Shown here piece by piece: positions 1 through 5,371 of a stretch of DNA of 5,371 nucleotides; the stretch's first letter is position 1, and the number at the start of each line of letters is the position of its first letter. The translations under genes and the position numbers were made by a program. The stretch is taken from the IMG/VR virus record IMGVR_UViG_3300029738_000110, one strand, 5' to 3'. Below the pieces are notes generated by a model. The model did no database searches and was not told where the DNA came from. It was given only the letters and a program-made list of their open reading frames with translations. The stretch comes from a virus. Lineage: Duplodnaviria > Heunggongvirae > Uroviricota > Caudoviricetes.

Positions 1-935
1 GGGTTGACGCCGGAAGAATCAGAGAACAGATACCGTTTTTACTGTAAAACCGTGGCCAATATTACTTGACCACTACAAAGGATGCCAACGATAAATGGAA
101 TGCCATGTGGGCTGTCAAAATTGAGCAGACCAAAGACGGCAAACATTATGTCGCGGGTATTGGCCTCAGCATGGAGGACACGGAAGAAGGCAAGCTGAGC
201 CAGTTTCTGGTTGCCGCTAACCGTATCGCGTTTATTGACCCGGCAAACGGGAATGAAACGCCGATGTTTGTGGCGCAGGGCAACCAGATATTCATGAACG
301 ACGTGTTCCTGAAGCGCCTGACGGCCCCCACCATTACCAGTGGTGGAAATCCACCGGCATTTTCCCTGACATCAGACGGAAAGCTGACCGCTAAAAATGC
401 GGATATCAGTGGCAGAGTGAATGCGAACGCCGGGACGCTCAACAATGTCACGGTAAATGAAAACTGTACGATTAAGGGCATGCTGGAGGCGACTCAGGTC
501 AGAGGTGACTTCGTTAAAGCTGTATCCAAATCATTCCCGAAACAGGCTGGTACGTGGGGTAACACGGAAACACCAAACGGGACGGTTACAGTCACCATCA
601 GCGATGATCATAACTTTGACCGTCAAATCATTATTCCGCCCATTATCTTTAACGGAATAGCGTATAGCGATCCGGGAAGTGGTAATAACCCGGGAGGTAC
701 AAGATACACGGGTTATGGTTTTGAAGTTCGCAAAAACGGTGTATTAATCGCATCCAGAGAAACTAAAGGGGCCATTCCCGGTAGCTACAGTGCGGTTATT
801 GATATGCCGAGTGGCAGGGGAAGCGTCACTCTGGAGTTTAAGGTTTTCCATAAAGGCAATCAGTGGGCAGGTAATATCACCGACTGTACGGTGATTGTGA
901 CCAAAAAAGCCGCTTCCGGCATCAGTATTCGTTGA
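1..935 (+). CDS. J: 3' portion of host-specificity protein J (central tail fibre / tail tip), partial at the window edge. The frame is discontinuous: frame 1 is open from 1 to 66 and stops at TGA 67-69, while the long frame-3 ORF (66-935) has an in-frame TAA at 45-47. Possible frameshifted pseudogene.
   Basis: The 289-aa translation ([91 protein letters not shown]...GISIR) matches, from memory, the C-terminal region of lambda J-family proteins. There is no ATG or Shine-Dalgarno at the ORF start (TTG at 66 only), consistent with a gene that begins upstream. It sits directly upstream of lom and stf, as in lambda. Confidence 0.8.
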
Positions 936-956
936 AATTGTTATAACCCATATAAG

Positions 957-980
957 GGCACCAGAAATGGTGCCTTTTTT
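957..980 (+). terminator. Rho-independent terminator downstream of J
   Basis: A 7-bp perfect stem (GGCACCA 957-963 pairing with TGGTGCC 968-974) closes a GAAA tetraloop and is followed by TTTTTT at 975-980. Confidence 0.7.
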
Positions 981-993
981 ATTGCAGAAAAGC

Positions 994-999
994 GAGAGG
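994..999 (+). promoter_or_regulatory. Shine-Dalgarno for lom
   Basis: GAGAGG lies 5 nt upstream of the ATG at 1005. Confidence 0.55.
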
Positions 1000-1004
1000 T
1001 AATT

Positions 1005-1076
1005 ATGCGTAAACTTTATGCCGCCATTTTGTCCGCAGCCATTTGTCTGGCCGTATCCGGTGCGCCTGCATGGGCA
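1005..1076 (+). other. Sec signal peptide of Lom (predicted signal peptidase I cleavage after AWA)
   Basis: A basic N-terminus (MRK), a hydrophobic core (LYAAILSAAICLAV) and an A-W-A motif precede the mature N-terminus SEHQ. Confidence 0.7.
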
Positions 1077-1604
1077 TCTGAACATCAGTCCACGCTGAGC
1101 GCGGGGTATCTTCATGCCCGGACCAACGTTCCCGGCAGTGATGATCTGAACGGGATTAACGTGAAATACCGTTATGAGTTTACGGATACGCTGGGGCTGG
1201 TGACGTCATTCAGCTATGCAGGAGACAAGAATCGCCAGCTGACCCGTTACAGCGATACCAGCTGGCATGAAGATTCCGTGCGTAACCGCTGGTTCAGCGT
1301 GATGGCGGGGCCGTCTGTGCGCGTGAATGAATGGTTCAGCGCGTATGCGATGGCGGGTATGGCTTACAGCCGTGTTTCGACTTTTTCCGGGGATTACCTT
1401 CGCGTAACTGACAACAAGGGGAAAACGCACGATGTGCTGACCGGAAGTGATGACGGTCGCCACAGCAACACGTCTCTGGCGTGGGGGGCTGGCGTGCAGT
1501 TTAACCCGACCGAATCCGTGGCCATTGATATTGCTTATGAAGGCTCCGGTAGTGGTGACTGGCGCACTGACGGTTTCATCGTGGGTGTCGGTTATAAATT
1601 CTGA
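1005..1604 (+). CDS. lom: Lom, an Ail/Lom/PagC/OmpX-family outer-membrane beta-barrel protein (lambdoid moron)
   Basis: The 199-aa ORF has an N-terminal signal peptide (MRKLYAAILSAAICLAVSGAPAWA, then SEHQ) with an AXA cleavage site. It has alternating amphipathic beta-strand character and ends in the OMP-typical aromatic ...GVGYKF. Its position between J and stf is the same as lambda lom. Confidence 0.9.
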   Translation: MRKLYAAILSAAICLAVSGAPAWASEHQSTLSAGYLHARTNVPGSDDLNGINVKYRYEFTDTLGLVTSFSYAGDKNRQLTRYSDTSWHEDSVRNRWFSVMAGPSVRVNEWFSAYAMAGMAYSRVSTFSGDYLRVTDNKGKTHDVLTGSDDGRHSNTSLAWGAGVQFNPTESVAIDIAYEGSGSGDWRTDGFIVGVGYKF

Positions 1605-1630
1605 TTAGCCAGGTAACACAGTGTTATGAC

Positions 1631-1657
1631 AGCCCGCCGGTTCAGGTGGGCTTTTTT
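1631..1657 (+). terminator. Rho-independent terminator downstream of lom
   Basis: An 8-bp stem (AGCCCGCC 1631-1638 pairing with GGTGGGCT 1645-1652, one G-U pair) closes a 6-nt loop and is followed by TTTTT at 1653-1657. Confidence 0.7.
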
Positions 1658-1668
1658 GTGGGGGGAAT

Positions 1669-4065
1669 ATGGCAGTAAAGATTTCAGGTGTACTGAAAGA
1701 CGGCACAGGAAAACCGGTACAGAACTGCTCAATCCAGCTGAAAGCAAAACGTAACAGCACCACGGTGGTAGTGAACACGCTGGCCTCAGAAAATCCGGAT
1801 GAAGCCGGGCGTTACAGTATGGATGTTGAGTATGGCCAGTACAGCGTTATCCTGCTGGTTGAAGGTTTTTCGCCTTCACATGCCGGGACCATCACCGTGT
1901 ATGAAGATTCTAAGCCGGGGACGCTGAATGATTTTCTCGGTGCCATGACGGAAGATGATGTCATGCCGGAGGCATTGCGTCGTTTTGAGGAAATGGTGGA
2001 AGAAGCGGCACGCAACGCTGAAGCCGCCTCTCAGAGCGCAGCGGCGGCAAAGAAATCCGAAACTGCAGCGGCATCATCGAAGAACGCGGCGAAAACCTCA
2101 GAAACGAATGCAGCTAATAGTGCACAGGCGGCAGCGACCTCAAAGACTGCATCGGCAAACTCCGCGACAGCAGCCAAAAAATCAGAAACCAACGCGAAAA
2201 ATAGCGAGACAGCCGCAAAGACGAGCGAAACCAACGCAAAGTCCAGCCAGACGGCAGCGAAAACCAGCGAAACGAATGCCAAAGCCAGTGAAACTGCGGC
2301 AAAAAACAGCCAGGTTGCAGCAGCCCAAAGCGAGAGCGCGGCAGCCGGTTCTGCGACTTCAGCAGCTGGATCAGCAACTGCTGCGGCTAACAGCCAGAAA
2401 GCTGCGAAGACGAGTGAAACTAACGCAAAGTCCAGCCAGACGGCAGCGAAGACCAGCGAAACGAATGCCAAAGCCAGCGAAACTGCGGCGAAAAACAGTC
2501 AGGATGCAGCAGCCCAAAGCGAGAGTGCTGCAGCTGGTTCTGCAAGCGCGGCGGCTGCTTCTGCCACTGCATCAGCCAACAGTCAAAAAGCAGCAAAAAC
2601 CAGTGAAACCAATGCAAAGACAAGCGAGACTGCAGCGGCGAACTCGGCGAAAGCATCGGCAGCAAGCCAGACAGCAGCTAAAGCAAGTGAAGACGCAGCC
2701 AGAGAGTATGCAAGTCAGGCAGCAGAGCCGTATAAATATGTCTTACAGCCACTGCCTGATGTGTGGATACCGTTTAACGATTCACTGGATATGATTACGG
2801 GCTTTTCGCCGTCATATAAAAAAATTGTTATTGGTGATGATGAAATAACGATGCCTGGCGACAAGGTTGTTAAGTTTAAACGCGCATCAACTGCCACATA
2901 TATCAATAAATCAGGCGTATTTAGTGTTGCTAAAATTGATGAGCCACGATTTGAAAAAGAAGGTTTATTGATTGAAGGACAGCGCACTAACTATTTTGTT
3001 AAATCCAATACTCCCGCTGAATGGACGAGTACCAGCAATATCGATAAAACTAATAATGGTGTTGATGAATTTGGTTTTTCATATGCCAAAATGCGAACAA
3101 AAGATAATATGACAGGACAATCATCTGCACTTAGTCTGCATACATGCAGTGCATCCCGGGGGATTGATGTTAGTGGCGATAATAAGTATTGCACTGTTTC
3201 ATGCAGGGTTAAAGCTCCTGATGGTCTTCGTTGTCGTTTGCGTTTTGAAAAATACGATGGGTCGGTTTATACATTTTTAGGAGATGCTTATTTAACTTTC
3301 GGAACTCTGATAATAGAAAAAACTGGCGGAGCAGCCAATAGAATAGCAGCTACTGCAACTAAAGATCCGGTTACAGGGTGGATTTTCTATGAGGCAACTA
3401 TAGAAGCTGTTGAAGGTGAAACCTTAATTGGCGCAATGATTCAGTATGCGCCGAAAAAAGGTGGTATAACTGAAGCGGGAGATTATATTTACCTTGCAAC
3501 ACCACAATTTGAAAACGGCGGATGTGCTTCATCTTTTGTTATTACGACAACTGCACCCGCAACCCGCTCCAGTGATATGGTGACGATCCCAACTGAAAAT
3601 AATATCTATAATAGACCGCTTACGTGTCTTGTCGAGGTTAATAGAAATTGGGGCGATATTCCTCCTAATGTAGCACCGCGTATTTTTGATTTTTCTGGTG
3701 TGCCACCTATTGAGTCAATTACATACGCTTTTAACACAACTGAGAAATATTACGGTCAGCTTTATATGCAAACTTATAAAGCGTCGACAAGTACTTACGT
3801 TTCTAGTGTGTTTGCTGGTCGAGCTGATGTTCGAAAATTCATTGGTGGTTTTAATATTTATTCTGATGGTACTAAACGAGTAGTTTCTAACGGTGAGGCT
3901 ACTAAAACTATGAAAACGGAGTGGACGGGCGTAAAAACACGGACCTTTATTCGAATTGGAGGTCAAGCCACATCGGGAACTCGTCATCTATTCGGCCATT
4001 TGAGAAATCTTCGTCTCTGGCATAAAGAATTAACTGATGCGCAAATGGGGGAGAGTATTAAATGA
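1669..4065 (+). CDS. stf: Side tail fibre protein (Stf family). It has a lambda-like N-terminal attachment domain, an Ala/Ser/Thr-rich repetitive shaft, and a divergent AT-rich distal (receptor-binding) domain.
   Basis: The 798-aa ORF starts MAVKISGVLKDGTGKPVQNCSIQLKAKRNSTTVVVNTLASENPDEAGRYSMDVEYGQYSVIL..., which matches the N-terminus of lambda Stf as I recall it. A G-rich Shine-Dalgarno (GGGGGGAA, 1660-1667) lies just upstream of the ATG. The central part is an SETNAK/TAAKTS repeat shaft. The C-terminus ends ...FGHLRNLRLWHKELTDAQMGESIK. Confidence 0.9.
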   Translation: MAVKISGVLKDGTGKPVQNCSIQLKAKRNSTTVVVNTLASENPDEAGRYSMDVEYGQYSVILLVEGFSPSHAGTITVYEDSKPGTLNDFLGAMTEDDVMPEALRRFEEMVEEAARNAEAASQSAAAAKKSETAAASSKNAAKTSETNAANSAQAAATSKTASANSATAAKKSETNAKNSETAAKTSETNAKSSQTAAKTSETNAKASETAAKNSQVAAAQSESAAAGSATSAAGSATAAANSQKAAKTSETNAKSSQTAAKTSETNAKASETAAKNSQDAAAQSESAAAGSASAAAASATASANSQKAAKTSETNAKTSETAAANSAKASAASQTAAKASEDAAREYASQAAEPYKYVLQPLPDVWIPFNDSLDMITGFSPSYKKIVIGDDEITMPGDKVVKFKRASTATYINKSGVFSVAKIDEPRFEKEGLLIEGQRTNYFVKSNTPAEWTSTSNIDKTNNGVDEFGFSYAKMRTKDNMTGQSSALSLHTCSASRGIDVSGDNKYCTVSCRVKAPDGLRCRLRFEKYDGSVYTFLGDAYLTFGTLIIEKTGGAANRIAATATKDPVTGWIFYEATIEAVEGETLIGAMIQYAPKKGGITEAGDYIYLATPQFENGGCASSFVITTTAPATRSSDMVTIPTENNIYNRPLTCLVEVNRNWGDIPPNVAPRIFDFSGVPPIESITYAFNTTEKYYGQLYMQTYKASTSTYVSSVFAGRADVRKFIGGFNIYSDGTKRVVSNGEATKTMKTEWTGVKTRTFIRIGGQATSGTRHLFGHLRNLRLWHKELTDAQMGESIK
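2215..2592 (+). repeat. In-frame tandem direct repeat of two 189-bp units (63 aa each) in the stf shaft, followed by a partial third unit to about 2645. It contains nested 27-33 bp sub-repeats encoding (A)AKTSETNAK-like motifs.
   Basis: Copy 1 begins gcaaagacgagcgaaaccaacgcaaagtccagccagacggcagcg at 2215. Copy 2 begins gcgaagacgagtgaaactaacgcaaagtccagccagacggcagcg at 2404, exactly 189 bp later. The copies are near-identical and differ mainly at synonymous positions plus a few substitutions. Confidence 0.85.
4047..4055 (+). promoter_or_regulatory. Shine-Dalgarno for the 93-aa ORF, embedded in the 3' end of stf
   Basis: GGGGGAGAG lies 6-7 nt upstream of the ATG at 4062. The ATG overlaps the stf stop (ATGA at 4062-4065). 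Confidence 0.55.
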
Positions 4066-4343
4066 AAGATTTAACACTCAAATTTGCAGACAGGGCCGAC
4101 TTTTCGGCCTTTATGGAGAGCATTGGCTATTATGATGACGAGTCGATGCAGGATGATATTCTTATTGACGTGATAGGTAATGTGTACAAAGAAACCGGAG
4201 AACTTACTGAAGATGGCGAGCCGGTATGTGTTAAGGAGGACGGATATTTTGTAAATGTGCGCATCATTAATGATTCGCAAATATCGTCATTATTCGATGA
4301 ATACGTGGTTGCTGTTGAGCATCAACTCCGTAGCTGGATGTGA
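4062..4343 (+). CDS. Small acidic hypothetical protein (93 aa), translationally coupled to stf. Candidate tail-fibre accessory or chaperone protein, unrelated to Tfa.
   Basis: The ORF has an ATG start with an upstream Shine-Dalgarno and a 4-bp ATGA overlap with the stf stop. It is Asp/Glu-rich (MKDLTLKFADRADFSAFMESIGYYDDESMQDDILIDVIGNVYKETGELTEDGEPVCVKEDGYF...). It shares the AT-rich composition of the stf distal domain. I recognise no family. Confidence 0.6.
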   Translation: MKDLTLKFADRADFSAFMESIGYYDDESMQDDILIDVIGNVYKETGELTEDGEPVCVKEDGYFVNVRIINDSQISSLFDEYVVAVEHQLRSWM

Positions 4344-4346
4344 GGA
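4342..4346 (+). promoter_or_regulatory. Shine-Dalgarno for the 234-aa ORF
   Basis: GAGGA overlaps the stop of the 93-aa ORF and lies 6 nt upstream of the ATG at 4353. Confidence 0.5.
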
Positions 4347-4352
4347 AGAAAA

Positions 4353-5057
4353 ATGGCTACATCGACAGTAATTCCTGATGACATCAAAACGCTAAAGGGA
4401 GATGTCAGTAAGGCAAAGGAAGATATTTCCTCAATTAACGTAAAAGTATCAACGCTTCAGACTGATATGGACAGTGCAAAGCAGGATATCAGTACCAGAT
4501 ACACAAAAACAGAAGTGGATAATAAGCTGAAAAACAAAGTGGAAGTGAACGATCTGGAAAGTGGTCGTTATGGCGGAGATTTTTACCCGCTGACTGGCCG
4601 TGAAGCGTTTTATTTATGGGGATTGGGCACAACTACAGCGGCGGCAAATCTTTATCTTAATCCTGACCCTGCAATTTCGTCTGTGCTGCGGTCAACATCG
4701 TCTATCCGCTATAAACATTCAGTAGAGACGATAGATTCAGAGCACGCCGATCTCATTTTCAGGATGCGCCCTGTGTGGTACAGGTCGCAATGCGAAAATG
4801 ACAGGCGTGACTGGGGATTCTATGGATTGATTGCCGAGGAAGTTGGAGAAATTGCCCCTCAGTTTGTTCACTGGCGACCAGCCAACGAAGATGATGCACC
4901 GGAAACCATTTCCAGCAATGGCCTTGTTGCCGAAGGTGTAATGTACGAACGTCTGGTTGTTCCACTGATTCACCATATCCAGAAGCTGACTGAAAGAGTT
5001 GATGAACTTGAGTCAGAATTAAAGTTGTTATCCGTTTCCCGAAGCGATATCGGATAA
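4353..5057 (+). CDS. Tail-fibre-like protein with an N-terminal coiled coil and a C-terminal intramolecular chaperone domain (peptidase S74 / endosialidase-chaperone type), 234 aa
   Basis: The N-terminal 70 aa or so are heptad-like and charged (DIKTLKGDVSKAKEDISSINVKVSTLQTDMDSAKQDISTRYTKTEVDNKLKNKVEV). The C-terminal half carries the characteristic chaperone-domain pattern: SSIRYK (aa 116-121, nt 4698-4715; compare the S-D-x-R-x-K autocleavage motif), then VETID..ADLIFRMRPVWYR, then GFYGLIAEEVGEIAPQFV (compare GxIAQEVxxVxPExV), then GVMYERLVVPLIHHIQKLTERVDELESEL (compare the conserved Y..L..LI.AIQEL coiled-coil tail). Confidence 0.75.
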   Translation: MATSTVIPDDIKTLKGDVSKAKEDISSINVKVSTLQTDMDSAKQDISTRYTKTEVDNKLKNKVEVNDLESGRYGGDFYPLTGREAFYLWGLGTTTAAANLYLNPDPAISSVLRSTSSIRYKHSVETIDSEHADLIFRMRPVWYRSQCENDRRDWGFYGLIAEEVGEIAPQFVHWRPANEDDAPETISSNGLVAEGVMYERLVVPLIHHIQKLTERVDELESELKLLSVSRSDIG

Positions 5058-5062
5058 AGGAG
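5056..5062 (+). promoter_or_regulatory. Strong Shine-Dalgarno (AAGGAGG) for the 97-aa ORF
   Basis: The consensus AAGGAGG lies 5 nt upstream of the ATG at 5068. Confidence 0.65.
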
Positions 5063-5067
5063 GCGTA

Positions 5068-5361
5068 ATGGATATAACACCTTTCCTTCATGCACTTTGT
5101 GCTGTGGCTGCGCAGGTACTGGTTGGTCTTTTTACCGGAAACTGGGCTTACGGGGCGATAGCTGGTTGTACGTTCTTCATTGCGCGTGAACATACCCAGG
5201 CAGAATATCGCTGGATTGAAATGTTCGGGCATGGCAAGCGTATGAATATGCCGTGGTGGGGCGGTTTTGATCCGCGTGCGTGGGATGTGGCAAGCCTGAT
5301 GGATTTTGCTGTGCCGGTGGTGGCGTGTCTGCTGGTCTGGCTGTTGGTTAATCGTGGGTGA
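5068..5361 (+). CDS. Small predicted inner-membrane protein (97 aa, two hydrophobic helices), function unknown. Candidate prophage moron.
   Basis: It has an ATG start with a consensus Shine-Dalgarno. Hydrophobic segments lie at about aa 6-36 (FLHALCAVAAQVLVGLFTGNWAYGAIAGCTFFIA) and aa 76-95 (LMDFAVPVVACLLVWLLV). They are separated by a polar, Trp-rich loop (EYRWIEMFGHGKRMNMPWWGGFDPRAWD). Confidence 0.65.
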   Translation: MDITPFLHALCAVAAQVLVGLFTGNWAYGAIAGCTFFIAREHTQAEYRWIEMFGHGKRMNMPWWGGFDPRAWDVASLMDFAVPVVACLLVWLLVNRG

Positions 5362-5371
5362 AAAAAGGTGA

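Follow-up and report, generated by a model that had tools for sequence, protein, structure and literature searches.

A low-GC tract in the stf locus of an Escherichia coli lambdoid prophage: a probable swappable distal fibre module shared among coliphage groups

Introduction

Horizontal exchange of stf/tfa-type tail fibre segments between unrelated temperate and virulent phages was reportedly described in the early 1990s. Here we examine a locus that resembles these mosaics in a 5,371-nucleotide (nt) stretch of tailed-phage DNA, IMG/VR virus record IMGVR_UViG_3300029738_000110 (we call the whole stretch the window), which is the J-lom-stf tail-tip end of an Escherichia coli lambdoid prophage. 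The guanine plus cytosine (GC) content of the window is low from about 2760 to about 4560, that is, through the distal domain of the side tail fibre gene stf, a gene of 93 amino acids (aa; orf93) and the first part of a gene of 234 aa (orf234). A first-pass annotation had proposed that this tract is a single cassette imported across the three genes. The reading that we favour, and that we think is probably correct as a whole, is that stf ends in a swappable distal fibre module, that GC steps down at the left junction of this module, and that the GC drop has two causes.

Fibre exchange of the stf/tfa type is cited as well documented, and Red-mediated recombination of lambda stf with defective prophages has been shown (PMC3945230). 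As in the mosaic stf genes of lambda and other coliphages, the N-terminal attachment part of the gene in the window appears to be kept and the distal receptor part exchanged, with homologous recombination in diverged conserved stretches and with segments shared by temperate and virulent phages. The gene has the PF08400 N-terminus of lambdoid Stf proteins, it lies 3' of J and lom, and a complete lambda-like tail operon is present in the 99% relatives of the window. Unlike the classical mosaics, the locus has no classical Stf C-terminus and Tfa chaperone. Gene calls and domain scans found no tfa within the window, and the fibre does not have the end of a classical Tfa-assembled Stf. The distal unit consists instead of a GTA-spike-fibre-like domain, the 93-aa protein and an optional second fibre protein with a Peptidase_S74 (S74) domain, and invertase-driven switching is not involved within the window. 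Beyond the window end, relatives carry orf97 (the last gene of the window) and then a 3' fragment of tfa (for example in loci L004:11303-11422, L001:7122-7232 and L011:6364-6474), which is followed by the pin invertase gene in the Qin-site copies. This tfa remnant 3' of orf97 suggests that the present distal unit took the place of a classical Stf-Tfa end.

The same proteins occur in lateral fibres that have already been surveyed. In the BASEL survey, the lateral fibre loci of Drexlerviridae, Dhillonvirus, Queuovirinae and Markadamsvirinae were alike only at the far N-terminus or 5' end, and the fibres were built of one, two or more proteins (PMC8594841). O-antigen is a known or proposed target of the lateral fibres in these siphoviruses (PMC8594841, PMC4728585). 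The fibres of the BASEL phages KurtStettler, VogelGryff, KarlBarth and IrisVonRoten match the distal domain in the window at 46-57%. Unlike the BASEL loci, the module in the window is joined to a lambdoid Stf N-terminus and shaft in a prophage and forms a GC trough of 10-12 points; the BASEL paper covers neither lambdoid prophages nor composition (PMC8594841).

A second comparison is with the T5-like phages DT57C and DT571/2, whose branched L-shaped fibres are made of LtfA and LtfB and whose second protein is proposed to dock N-terminally on the first (PMC4728585, PMC10713586). The window shares with them the presence of two fibre genes and of an intramolecular chaperone domain of the self-cleaving S74 type, and the C-terminus of orf234 aligns with that of DT57C LtfA (PDB 8hqz_d, E = 5e-7), with 'TSSIRYK' of orf234 opposite 'TSGIEYK' of LtfA. 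On the other hand, stf of the window has no S74 domain, a 93-aa gene lies between the two fibre genes, and orf234 is very short. A tblastn search of 50,697 phage records found no match between aa 1-65 of orf234 and the docking segment of LtfB or phiEco32 gp15; the match to DT57C was only in ltfA (E = 0.6). Judged by these comparisons, the arrangement resembles LtfA/LtfB but falls outside it, with no S74 domain in stf and no LtfB-like N-terminus in orf234.

The third relative is Rcc01080, the head spike fibre of RcGTA from Rhodobacter capsulatus (PDB 6TB9), which binds extracellular polysaccharide (PMC7296036, PMC10218006). Residues 434-634 of stf, which overlap the core of the distal domain, match the NCBIfam domain built on this protein (GTA_spike_fiber, E = 1.6e-15). 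Similarity to the solved chain is marginal (E = 0.057), and the tail fibre context and the rest of the protein differ. This marginal match of the distal domain and that of orf234 to the S74 region of DT57C LtfA were the only matches to solved structures.

Left junction and flanking handles

On the alignments, 2722-2748 is a true and fixed module junction, and it is here that GC steps down. Nucleotide homology to the fibre genes of the T1-like phage tuinn, the T5-like phage BUCT632, the Seuratvirus KurtStettler and the Nonagvirus ESCO3 begins at 2704-2748, and upstream of about 2734 no alignment was possible to T1-like, T5-like, Seuratvirus, Nonagvirus or Dhillonvirus fibres. At the protein level, 218 phage records match the distal domain (aa 346-798); they include lambdoid phages, Drexlerviridae, Dhillonvirus, Queuovirinae, Markadamsvirinae and rV5-like myoviruses. 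Among the matches listed, these alignments, those of Dhillonvirus and the rV5-like phages included, start within the first 17 residues of the domain. The same position is seen in lambdoid loci with an unrelated, shorter shaft: in the prophages of Nissle, FORC_082 and strain 2/0 (L100-L102), homology to the window resumes at 2722-2748, and in FORC_082 GC falls from 0.61 to 0.40 exactly at the point of resumption. The junction sits just ahead of a PLPDVWIPFND motif (at about 2734-2748 in the window). The first-pass annotation had placed both boundaries of the tract at domain junctions within coding sequence, and for the left boundary this was borne out.

The first 250 nt or so of the module (KYVLQPLPDVWIPFND onward, 2734-2994) form what we call the left handle. 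Its nucleotide identity is 77-81% to the fibre genes of four virulent families and 71% to Dhillonvirus; lambdoid alleles share about 74-100% with one another. The right handle (3949-4396) consists of the C-terminal tail of stf, orf93 and the first 15 codons of orf234, and it is 87% identical to ESCO3 (over 3947-4411) and 69% to tuinn. Between the handles lies the hypervariable core of the distal domain.

The distal locus is a shared, exchangeable module of at least six coliphage groups (lambdoid, T1-like, T5-like, Queuovirinae, Dhillonvirus and rV5-like). In each family it is attached at the one fixed junction to an attachment part and shaft of that family's own kind. Alleles would be replaced by homologous recombination in the two handles that flank the core, and the body of the second fibre gene (4396-5056) would be swapped or lost separately. 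Exchange in the handles through phage recombinases would be in line with experiments on lambda stf, in which recombinases of the Red/Rad52 type recombine stf regions that are 12% diverged (PMC3945230). The main left handle lies inside the low-GC tract and not in the shaft repeats, to which the first-pass annotation had assigned this role. The shaft contains a 189-nt (63-aa) tandem repeat at 2203-2637 (2.3 copies, 83% matches) that is made of 21- and 42-nt sub-repeats, and both its length and its sequence vary among relatives.

The earlier suggestion that the tract specifies a modular, exchangeable fibre end was supported: it encodes the exchangeable distal part of the fibre, probably the receptor-binding end, and the core is probably a glycan-binding receptor domain.

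The GC step and its synonymous component

GC was 0.521 in 1-2759, 0.399 in 2760-4560 and 0.496 in 4561-5371. In 200-nt windows it was 0.345-0.435 across 2801-4600 as compared to 0.445-0.59 upstream, where it also dips to 0.445-0.475 at 600-1100. A likelihood fit with two breakpoints placed them at 2730 and 4585, with a log-likelihood ratio of 34.8. A coarser grid gave 33.7, compared to maxima of 11.9 among 200 shuffles of single bases and 21.6 when blocks of 100 nt were shuffled 200 times. The low stretch between 2760 and 4560 reported by the first-pass annotation is therefore real and its shift exceeds that of the shuffled sequences. Its two edges differ in character, with the left one sharp (2700-2820 lie within 2 log units) and the right one diffuse (4450-4750).

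Among the 1.8-kb windows of the complete genome of PhiR49_1, a deposited lambdoid phage, the tract falls in the lowest 0.7% (z = -1.8), but two other islands of that genome are equally low. The structural genes of PhiR49_1 have a GC of 0.55-0.59 and a GC at third codon positions (GC3) of 0.62-0.69.

The synonymous component was narrower than the total-GC tract. GC3 divided the window into three segments of 0.49, 0.25 and 0.44, with change points at 2812 (support 2524-2884) and 3910 (support 3874-4098) and a ratio of 27.3 against a shuffle maximum of 10.7. The strong synonymous-codon signal (GC3 about 0.25-0.28) is limited to the stf distal domain, at about 2812-3910, and ends with stf (Table 1). 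In total GC the left handle is already poor (about 0.38-0.40).

We also asked which genes best predict the codon usage of 2704-4062. Per codon, the best fit was to T5-like non-fibre genes (-1.102), followed by Seuratvirus genes (-1.111), and the worst was to lambdoid structural genes (-1.382). Codon usage in orf93, orf234 and orf97 was fitted by lambdoid early or T1-like genes, and the T5-like signature was not present in them. In our reading the GC step has two causes: a true synonymous shift in the stf distal domain (GC3 0.26-0.32) that is T5-like and Queuovirinae-like and unlike lambdoid structural genes, and an amino-acid contrast added on top of it.

Exchange between phage families and the source of the low GC

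An identity matrix of 15 allele clusters showed that the relations among alleles are incongruent with phage family. The distal fibre domains of tuinn (L007:5986-7420, Drexlerviridae) and BUCT632 (L008:5987-7421, Demerecviridae) are 88.8% identical over 1438 nt of DNA and at least 90% identical as protein, which points to a fairly recent exchange between two virulent families that differ in genome GC. For two lambdoid alleles, identity to T5-like and Seuratvirus alleles is 74-77%, as compared to 45-66% to most other lambdoid ones (one pair reaches 78%).

Another case involves a sister of the window allele. The virulent Escherichia phage vB_EcoS_ESCO3 (L103:5075-7409, nt 889-3224 of the fibre gene) and an E. 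coli lambdoid prophage (L073:3666-6001) differ at 3 positions in 2336 nt (99.87% identity). The shared tract runs from the distal domain through the orf93 homologue and on into the chaperone region of the second fibre gene, and its crossovers lie in the left handle, at the equivalent of about 2833 in the window, and in the S74 region. This near-identity indicates that the three-gene cassette moves as a unit between families, as the first-pass annotation had supposed, although it is not the only unit that moves: the core and the orf234 body also do so independently (see below). Likewise, the right crossover did lie in the chaperone region here. At least 80% of the sister allele is present in 394 E. 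coli genomes (2 of all matching records at 99.8% and 353 at 95-99%), and no other Queuovirinae record exceeds 81% identity to the ESCO3 allele. With the allele in so many E. coli genomes and in one Nonagvirus, the transfer to ESCO3 was likely from prophage to virulent phage.

The composition of the module varies with the phage that carries it. The T5-like homologue (GC 0.39, GC3 0.285) matches its own genome background (GC3 0.293). In other groups the GC3 of the module is below background, moderately so in T1-like tuinn (0.32 vs 0.47) and Seuratvirus (0.32 vs 0.40) and far below in the lambdoid phages (0.28-0.38 vs 0.50-0.66). On the other hand, the Dhillonvirus homologue has a GC of 0.54 and a GC3 of 0.59 in a phage whose GC3 is 0.67, and the composition of the module is therefore not dictated by its protein.

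These data make an ultimate origin of the low GC in low-GC virulent phages plausible, and we infer it with caution. Several observations weigh against such an import. All 10 lambdoid alleles found are GC-poor (GC 0.40-0.44) and have diversified within lambdoid prophages, so the low GC is old at the locus; it characterizes the allelic series as a whole and was not left behind by a recent import into this prophage. PhiR49_1 has its other low-GC islands at a porin gene and at the right end. The ESCO3 transfer probably ran in the opposite direction. The allele of the window itself was not found outside a lambdoid context in E. coli genomes, 50,697 phage records, IMG/VR, one genome per species or metagenome contigs, and its nearest matches in virulent phages have 57-59% protein identity. 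Since it was found in lambdoid loci only, no donor could be named. The prediction of a lower-GC donor thus fared unevenly: codon usage of 2704-4062 speaks for it and the low GC common to the 10 lambdoid alleles speaks against a recent one. The first-pass annotation had also suggested a search for the cassette on other fibre N-termini; homologous modules occur in six phage groups, and the allele of the window was found only on lambdoid backbones.

These objections could be accommodated if the module were a long-term lambdoid resident whose AT-richness is kept locally, for example because prophage accessory regions are typically biased towards AT, because silencing or low expression is selected for, or because codon selection is relaxed in a gene that evolves fast, and if virulent phages mainly borrowed it from prophages. 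The GC-poverty of 10 of 10 lambdoid alleles despite their deep divergence, the equally AT-rich islands in the same genome, the prophage-to-virulent appearance of the sole recent transfer seen, and the low GC3 of the module in tuinn are all consistent with this. However, agreement between the module and its background is limited to T5-like phages and, in the case of the sister allele, to Nonagvirus; its composition is near the GC-rich background in Dhillonvirus, which indicates that composition follows residence; and the best codon-usage fit is T5-like. We consider long-term residence possible but doubtful.

A low-GC bacterial genus as donor was also considered and rejected. The scan of species representatives yielded Escherichia species, one Buttiauxella (43% identity) and a 'Collinsella' contig that is probably mis-binned. 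The latter (L098) is a 2836-nt contig of a 'Collinsella sp.' metagenome-assembled genome. E. coli-type (rV5-like or lambdoid) fibre genes occur in it, in 'Campylobacter phage' records MG065653, MG065676, MG065652 and MG065692, and in 'Listeria' phage records; the Campylobacter, Listeria and Collinsella labels are probably due to mislabelling, contamination or mis-binning.

Returning to the exchangeable module, a stronger version of this reading would hold that the GC trough is a cross-family cassette (distal domain, 93-aa protein and docking peptide, the second fibre being optional) with its compositional home in virulent T5-like and Queuovirinae phages, traded in both directions between lambdoid prophages and virulent coliphages by means of the two handles, and so recently that 99.9%-identical tracts are left. 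We regard this version as evenly balanced between right and wrong.

Homology edges among related lambdoid loci

To locate the exchanged units we compared 93 related lambdoid loci from complete E. coli genomes, phage records, IMG/VR and species-representative genomes, each of them a J/lom/stf context or a fragment of one. Where the stf allele differs, collinearity with the window extends across 2760, and 58 of these loci lose homology only at about 2880-3025. Homology is regained in 59 (54 of them at about 3950-4020), which then run collinear with the window across 4560. In 44 loci homology breaks a second time, at about 4396, and 35 resume it at 5056-5067. The breaks therefore cluster near 2880-3025, 3950-4020, 4396 and 5020-5067, and none of the 93 loci has an edge within 100 nt of 4560 (4460-4660), which led us to reject 4560 as a module junction. 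The matching pattern was seen in 37 further metagenome contigs, all lambdoid and at least some of them labelled human gut.

In the 31 same-allele loci, the left end of the near-identical tract falls at 114, 972, 1921 (12 loci), 2020, 2341, 2437 or 2695-2785 (11 loci), and the right end at 4180-4204 (9 loci), 4239, 4327, 4396, 5020 (12 loci) or beyond 5330. Exchange of the stf core (about 2995-3950) is independent of that of the orf234 body (4396-5056), and the low-GC tract comprises at least two such units together with conserved handles, not one imported unit.

The first-pass annotation had read 2760-4560 as a single, recent import from a lower-GC donor, with crossovers in the shaft repeats and the chaperone domain. 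Agreement of the total-GC change points with these coordinates, the starts of near-identity in the N-terminal domain or shaft of some same-allele loci (1921 to 2437, above) and the right crossover of the sister allele's recent transfer in the chaperone region are what such an import would leave. However, the relatives with other alleles are collinear across both 2760 and 4560, the interval around 4560 is free of edges, GC3 recovers at about 3910-4065 and not at 4560, the core and the orf234 body swap independently with orf234 optional, and low GC in every lambdoid allele means that it is no mark of a recent event here. Collinearity of related prophages across the boundaries was what the first-pass annotation had named as a refutation, and for 4560 it was found. 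The right boundary at 4560 and the one-cassette interpretation were therefore abandoned, and we judge a single recent import to be very improbable.

The same fibre allele (at least 99% identity) was found in prophages at two or more chromosomal sites, by pinQ-ydfK-ydfJ (L001 and L003) and by ompT-envY (L004). J and lom in these prophages are just 55-89% identical, and the presence of one allele at different sites next to diverged J and lom implies that the cassette has spread among distinct lambdoid prophages.

Contribution of protein composition

The low total GC that extends to about 4560 beyond the end of stf has another explanation. Given the amino acids of 2760-4560 and the codon usage of the flanks, the predicted GC is 0.464 as compared to 0.52 in the flanks, so that roughly half of the drop is attributable to protein composition. 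For orf93 (0.416 observed vs 0.436 expected) and for aa 1-70 of orf234 (0.386 vs 0.420), protein composition accounts for most of it, and in orf93 the low value comes from second codon positions (GC2 0.28). In the stf distal domain, by contrast, the observed GC of 0.40 is well below the expected 0.46-0.52. The synonymous deficit amounts to 6-9 points in this domain, 2 points in orf93 and about 3 points across the entire orf234.

The contrast is sharpened by the shaft, whose GC is raised by Ala codons (GC2 0.70); Gly, Ala, Arg and Pro make up 38% of its residues as compared to 9-14% in orf93 and the coiled coil (9% in aa 1-70 of orf234). With an Ala-rich shaft upstream and a Lys/Asp/Glu/Asn/Ile-rich orf93 and coiled coil downstream, low total GC reaches about 4560 without any junction there. 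The recovery at about 4560 is the end of the coiled coil, not a change in codon usage.

It could be argued that the entire tract is a by-product of an Asn/Lys/Ile/Tyr-rich beta domain, an acidic protein and a coiled coil set against an Ala-rich shaft, with no foreign origin at all; protein composition is indeed the main explanation for 4065-4560, but as a complete explanation for 2734-4062 it is refuted by the GC3 of 0.26-0.32, by the homologous Dhillonvirus domain and by synonymous choices that suit T5-like genes far better than lambdoid structural genes, and it has very little chance of being the whole answer.

Gene content of the window

The window contains six genes, all on the + strand (Table 1). 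A prophage of E. coli SCU-172 shares 99.4% identity with it, and PhiR49_1 98.7%. Of 5426 complete E. coli genomes, 165 contain at least 80% of the window and 224 at least 80% of 2760-4560.

Table 1. Features of the window, with GC3 where it was calculated for the feature or the part given in brackets
Feature	Coordinates	Strand	GC3	Remarks
Tail-tip protein J, C-terminus	66-935	+		Pfam Phage_Tail_Tip, Ig_GpJ_C
lom (Ail/Lom)	1005-1604	+		
stf, side tail fibre gene, 798 aa	1669-4065	+		Pfam PF08400
stf N-terminal virion-attachment domain, aa 1-131	1669-2061	+	0.53	PF08400 phage_tail_N, E = 1.2e-68; GC 0.52
stf shaft, Ala/Ser/Thr/Lys-rich	2062-2733	+	0.47	GC 0.555
Left handle, first ~87 codons of distal module, KYVLQPLPDVWIPFNDSLDMITGF...	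2734-2994	+	0.32 (2761-2994)	Conserved across phage groups
Hypervariable core of stf distal domain, putative glycan-binding receptor domain	2995-3948	+	0.26	Lowest GC3
stf C-terminal tail, conserved; right handle begins	3949-4065	+	0.29 (3949-4062)	Homology resumes in different-allele loci
orf93, small acidic protein, 93 aa	4062-4343	+	0.44	PHROG phrog_1361, E = 2.7e-46
orf234, S74-bearing second fibre gene, 234 aa	4353-5057	+	0.40 (aa 1-70), 0.36 (aa 71-115), 0.46 (aa 116-234)	Pfam PF13884
orf234 first 15 codons, MATSTVIPDDIKTLK; putative docking peptide, right handle ends	4353-4396	+		Conserved motif
orf234 body	4397-5057	+		Coiled coil to ~4560, short head, Peptidase_S74 from 4698
orf97, small hydrophobic protein, 97 aa	5068-5361	+	0.51	PHROG phrog_1443; GC 0.53
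Low-GC tract by total GC	2730-4585			Two-breakpoint likelihood fit

The start of orf93 overlaps the stop codon of stf. A homologue lies directly 3' of the distal domain in lambdoid, T1-like, T5-like, Seuratvirus, Dhillonvirus and rV5-like phages, at every locus examined, and the protein is a putative assembly factor or adaptor.

The second fibre protein has a conserved N-terminus, M-[AV]-T-x-T-x-I-P-x-D-I-x-x-L-K, in which ten positions are invariant among eight proteins of five phage groups, and very different lengths: 167 aa in tuinn, 234 in the window, about 345 in CFT073, 510 in KurtStettler and 580 in BUCT632. In orf234, aa 116-172 match Peptidase_S74 (27.3 bits vs a cut-off of 22). The alignment of 'TSSIRYK' with LtfA suggests a cleavage near Ser115/116 that would leave about 115 residues. 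A different second fibre body of about 345 aa takes the place of the orf234 body in CFT073 and in phage 2G7b. The gene is absent from the Nissle-, FORC_082- and strain 2/0-type prophages (L100:6294-6878, L101:6291-6866, L102:8795-9379), in which the orf93 homologue is followed directly by orf97 and homology resumes at 5056. Because orf234 is missing from some loci, it is unlikely to be a chaperone that stf requires; we consider it a putative branch fibre. The S74-bearing gene is thus an optional insert between two conserved small genes. The second of these, orf97, lies outside the low-GC tract and is about 92-100% identical at the amino-acid level whichever cassette allele is upstream. This gene could serve the prophage as an accessory gene with a membrane-located product.

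Variation is also found 5' of stf. In most relatives that otherwise share the window, the receptor-binding C-terminal region of J (about 100-900) either cannot be aligned or is 55-77% identical, and lom is missing from some loci (e.g. L011, L028); both are additional swapped or optional modules.

In many genomes stf is a pseudogene (L001:3407-5806; L002:2828-5806, which is CFT073; L102:4237-8798), with a frameshift in the shaft, an adjoining IS200 in CFT073 or a split by IS66 in strain 2/0. Annotation pipelines name the 3' pieces of such broken genes 'phage head spike fiber domain-containing protein', and they can be mistaken for another fibre type. We considered these annotations as instances of the cassette on other N-termini and rejected them, as they are 3' pieces of broken lambdoid-type stf.

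Discussion

The locus is a well-resolved but ordinary case of tail-fibre mosaicism of an already known kind. Exchangeable receptor-binding fibre ends are textbook knowledge, the variability of lateral-fibre loci past the 5' end has been described (PMC8594841), and the allele is already present in a deposited phage and in the 224 complete E. coli genomes mentioned above; as a discovery it carries little weight. Its practical value is as a map, with a fixed junction, two handles, a hypervariable core and a second fibre gene that is replaceable separately. These features are the natural cut points for host-range engineering of lambda-, T1-, T5- and 9g-type phages.

The tract also calls for caution in composition-based island calling, since one of its two total-GC edges arises from amino-acid composition and not from recombination.

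The tract shared by ESCO3 and a lambdoid prophage indicates that virulent phages can acquire fibre modules from prophages, which is relevant to the safety of therapeutic phages and to their evolution. A survey published in 2014 found no recent mosaics of temperate and virulent phages in E. coli (PMC3945230), and recent trade in both directions, if true, would contradict that report. Resident prophages would then be a ready library of receptor modules for virulent phages, including therapeutic ones.

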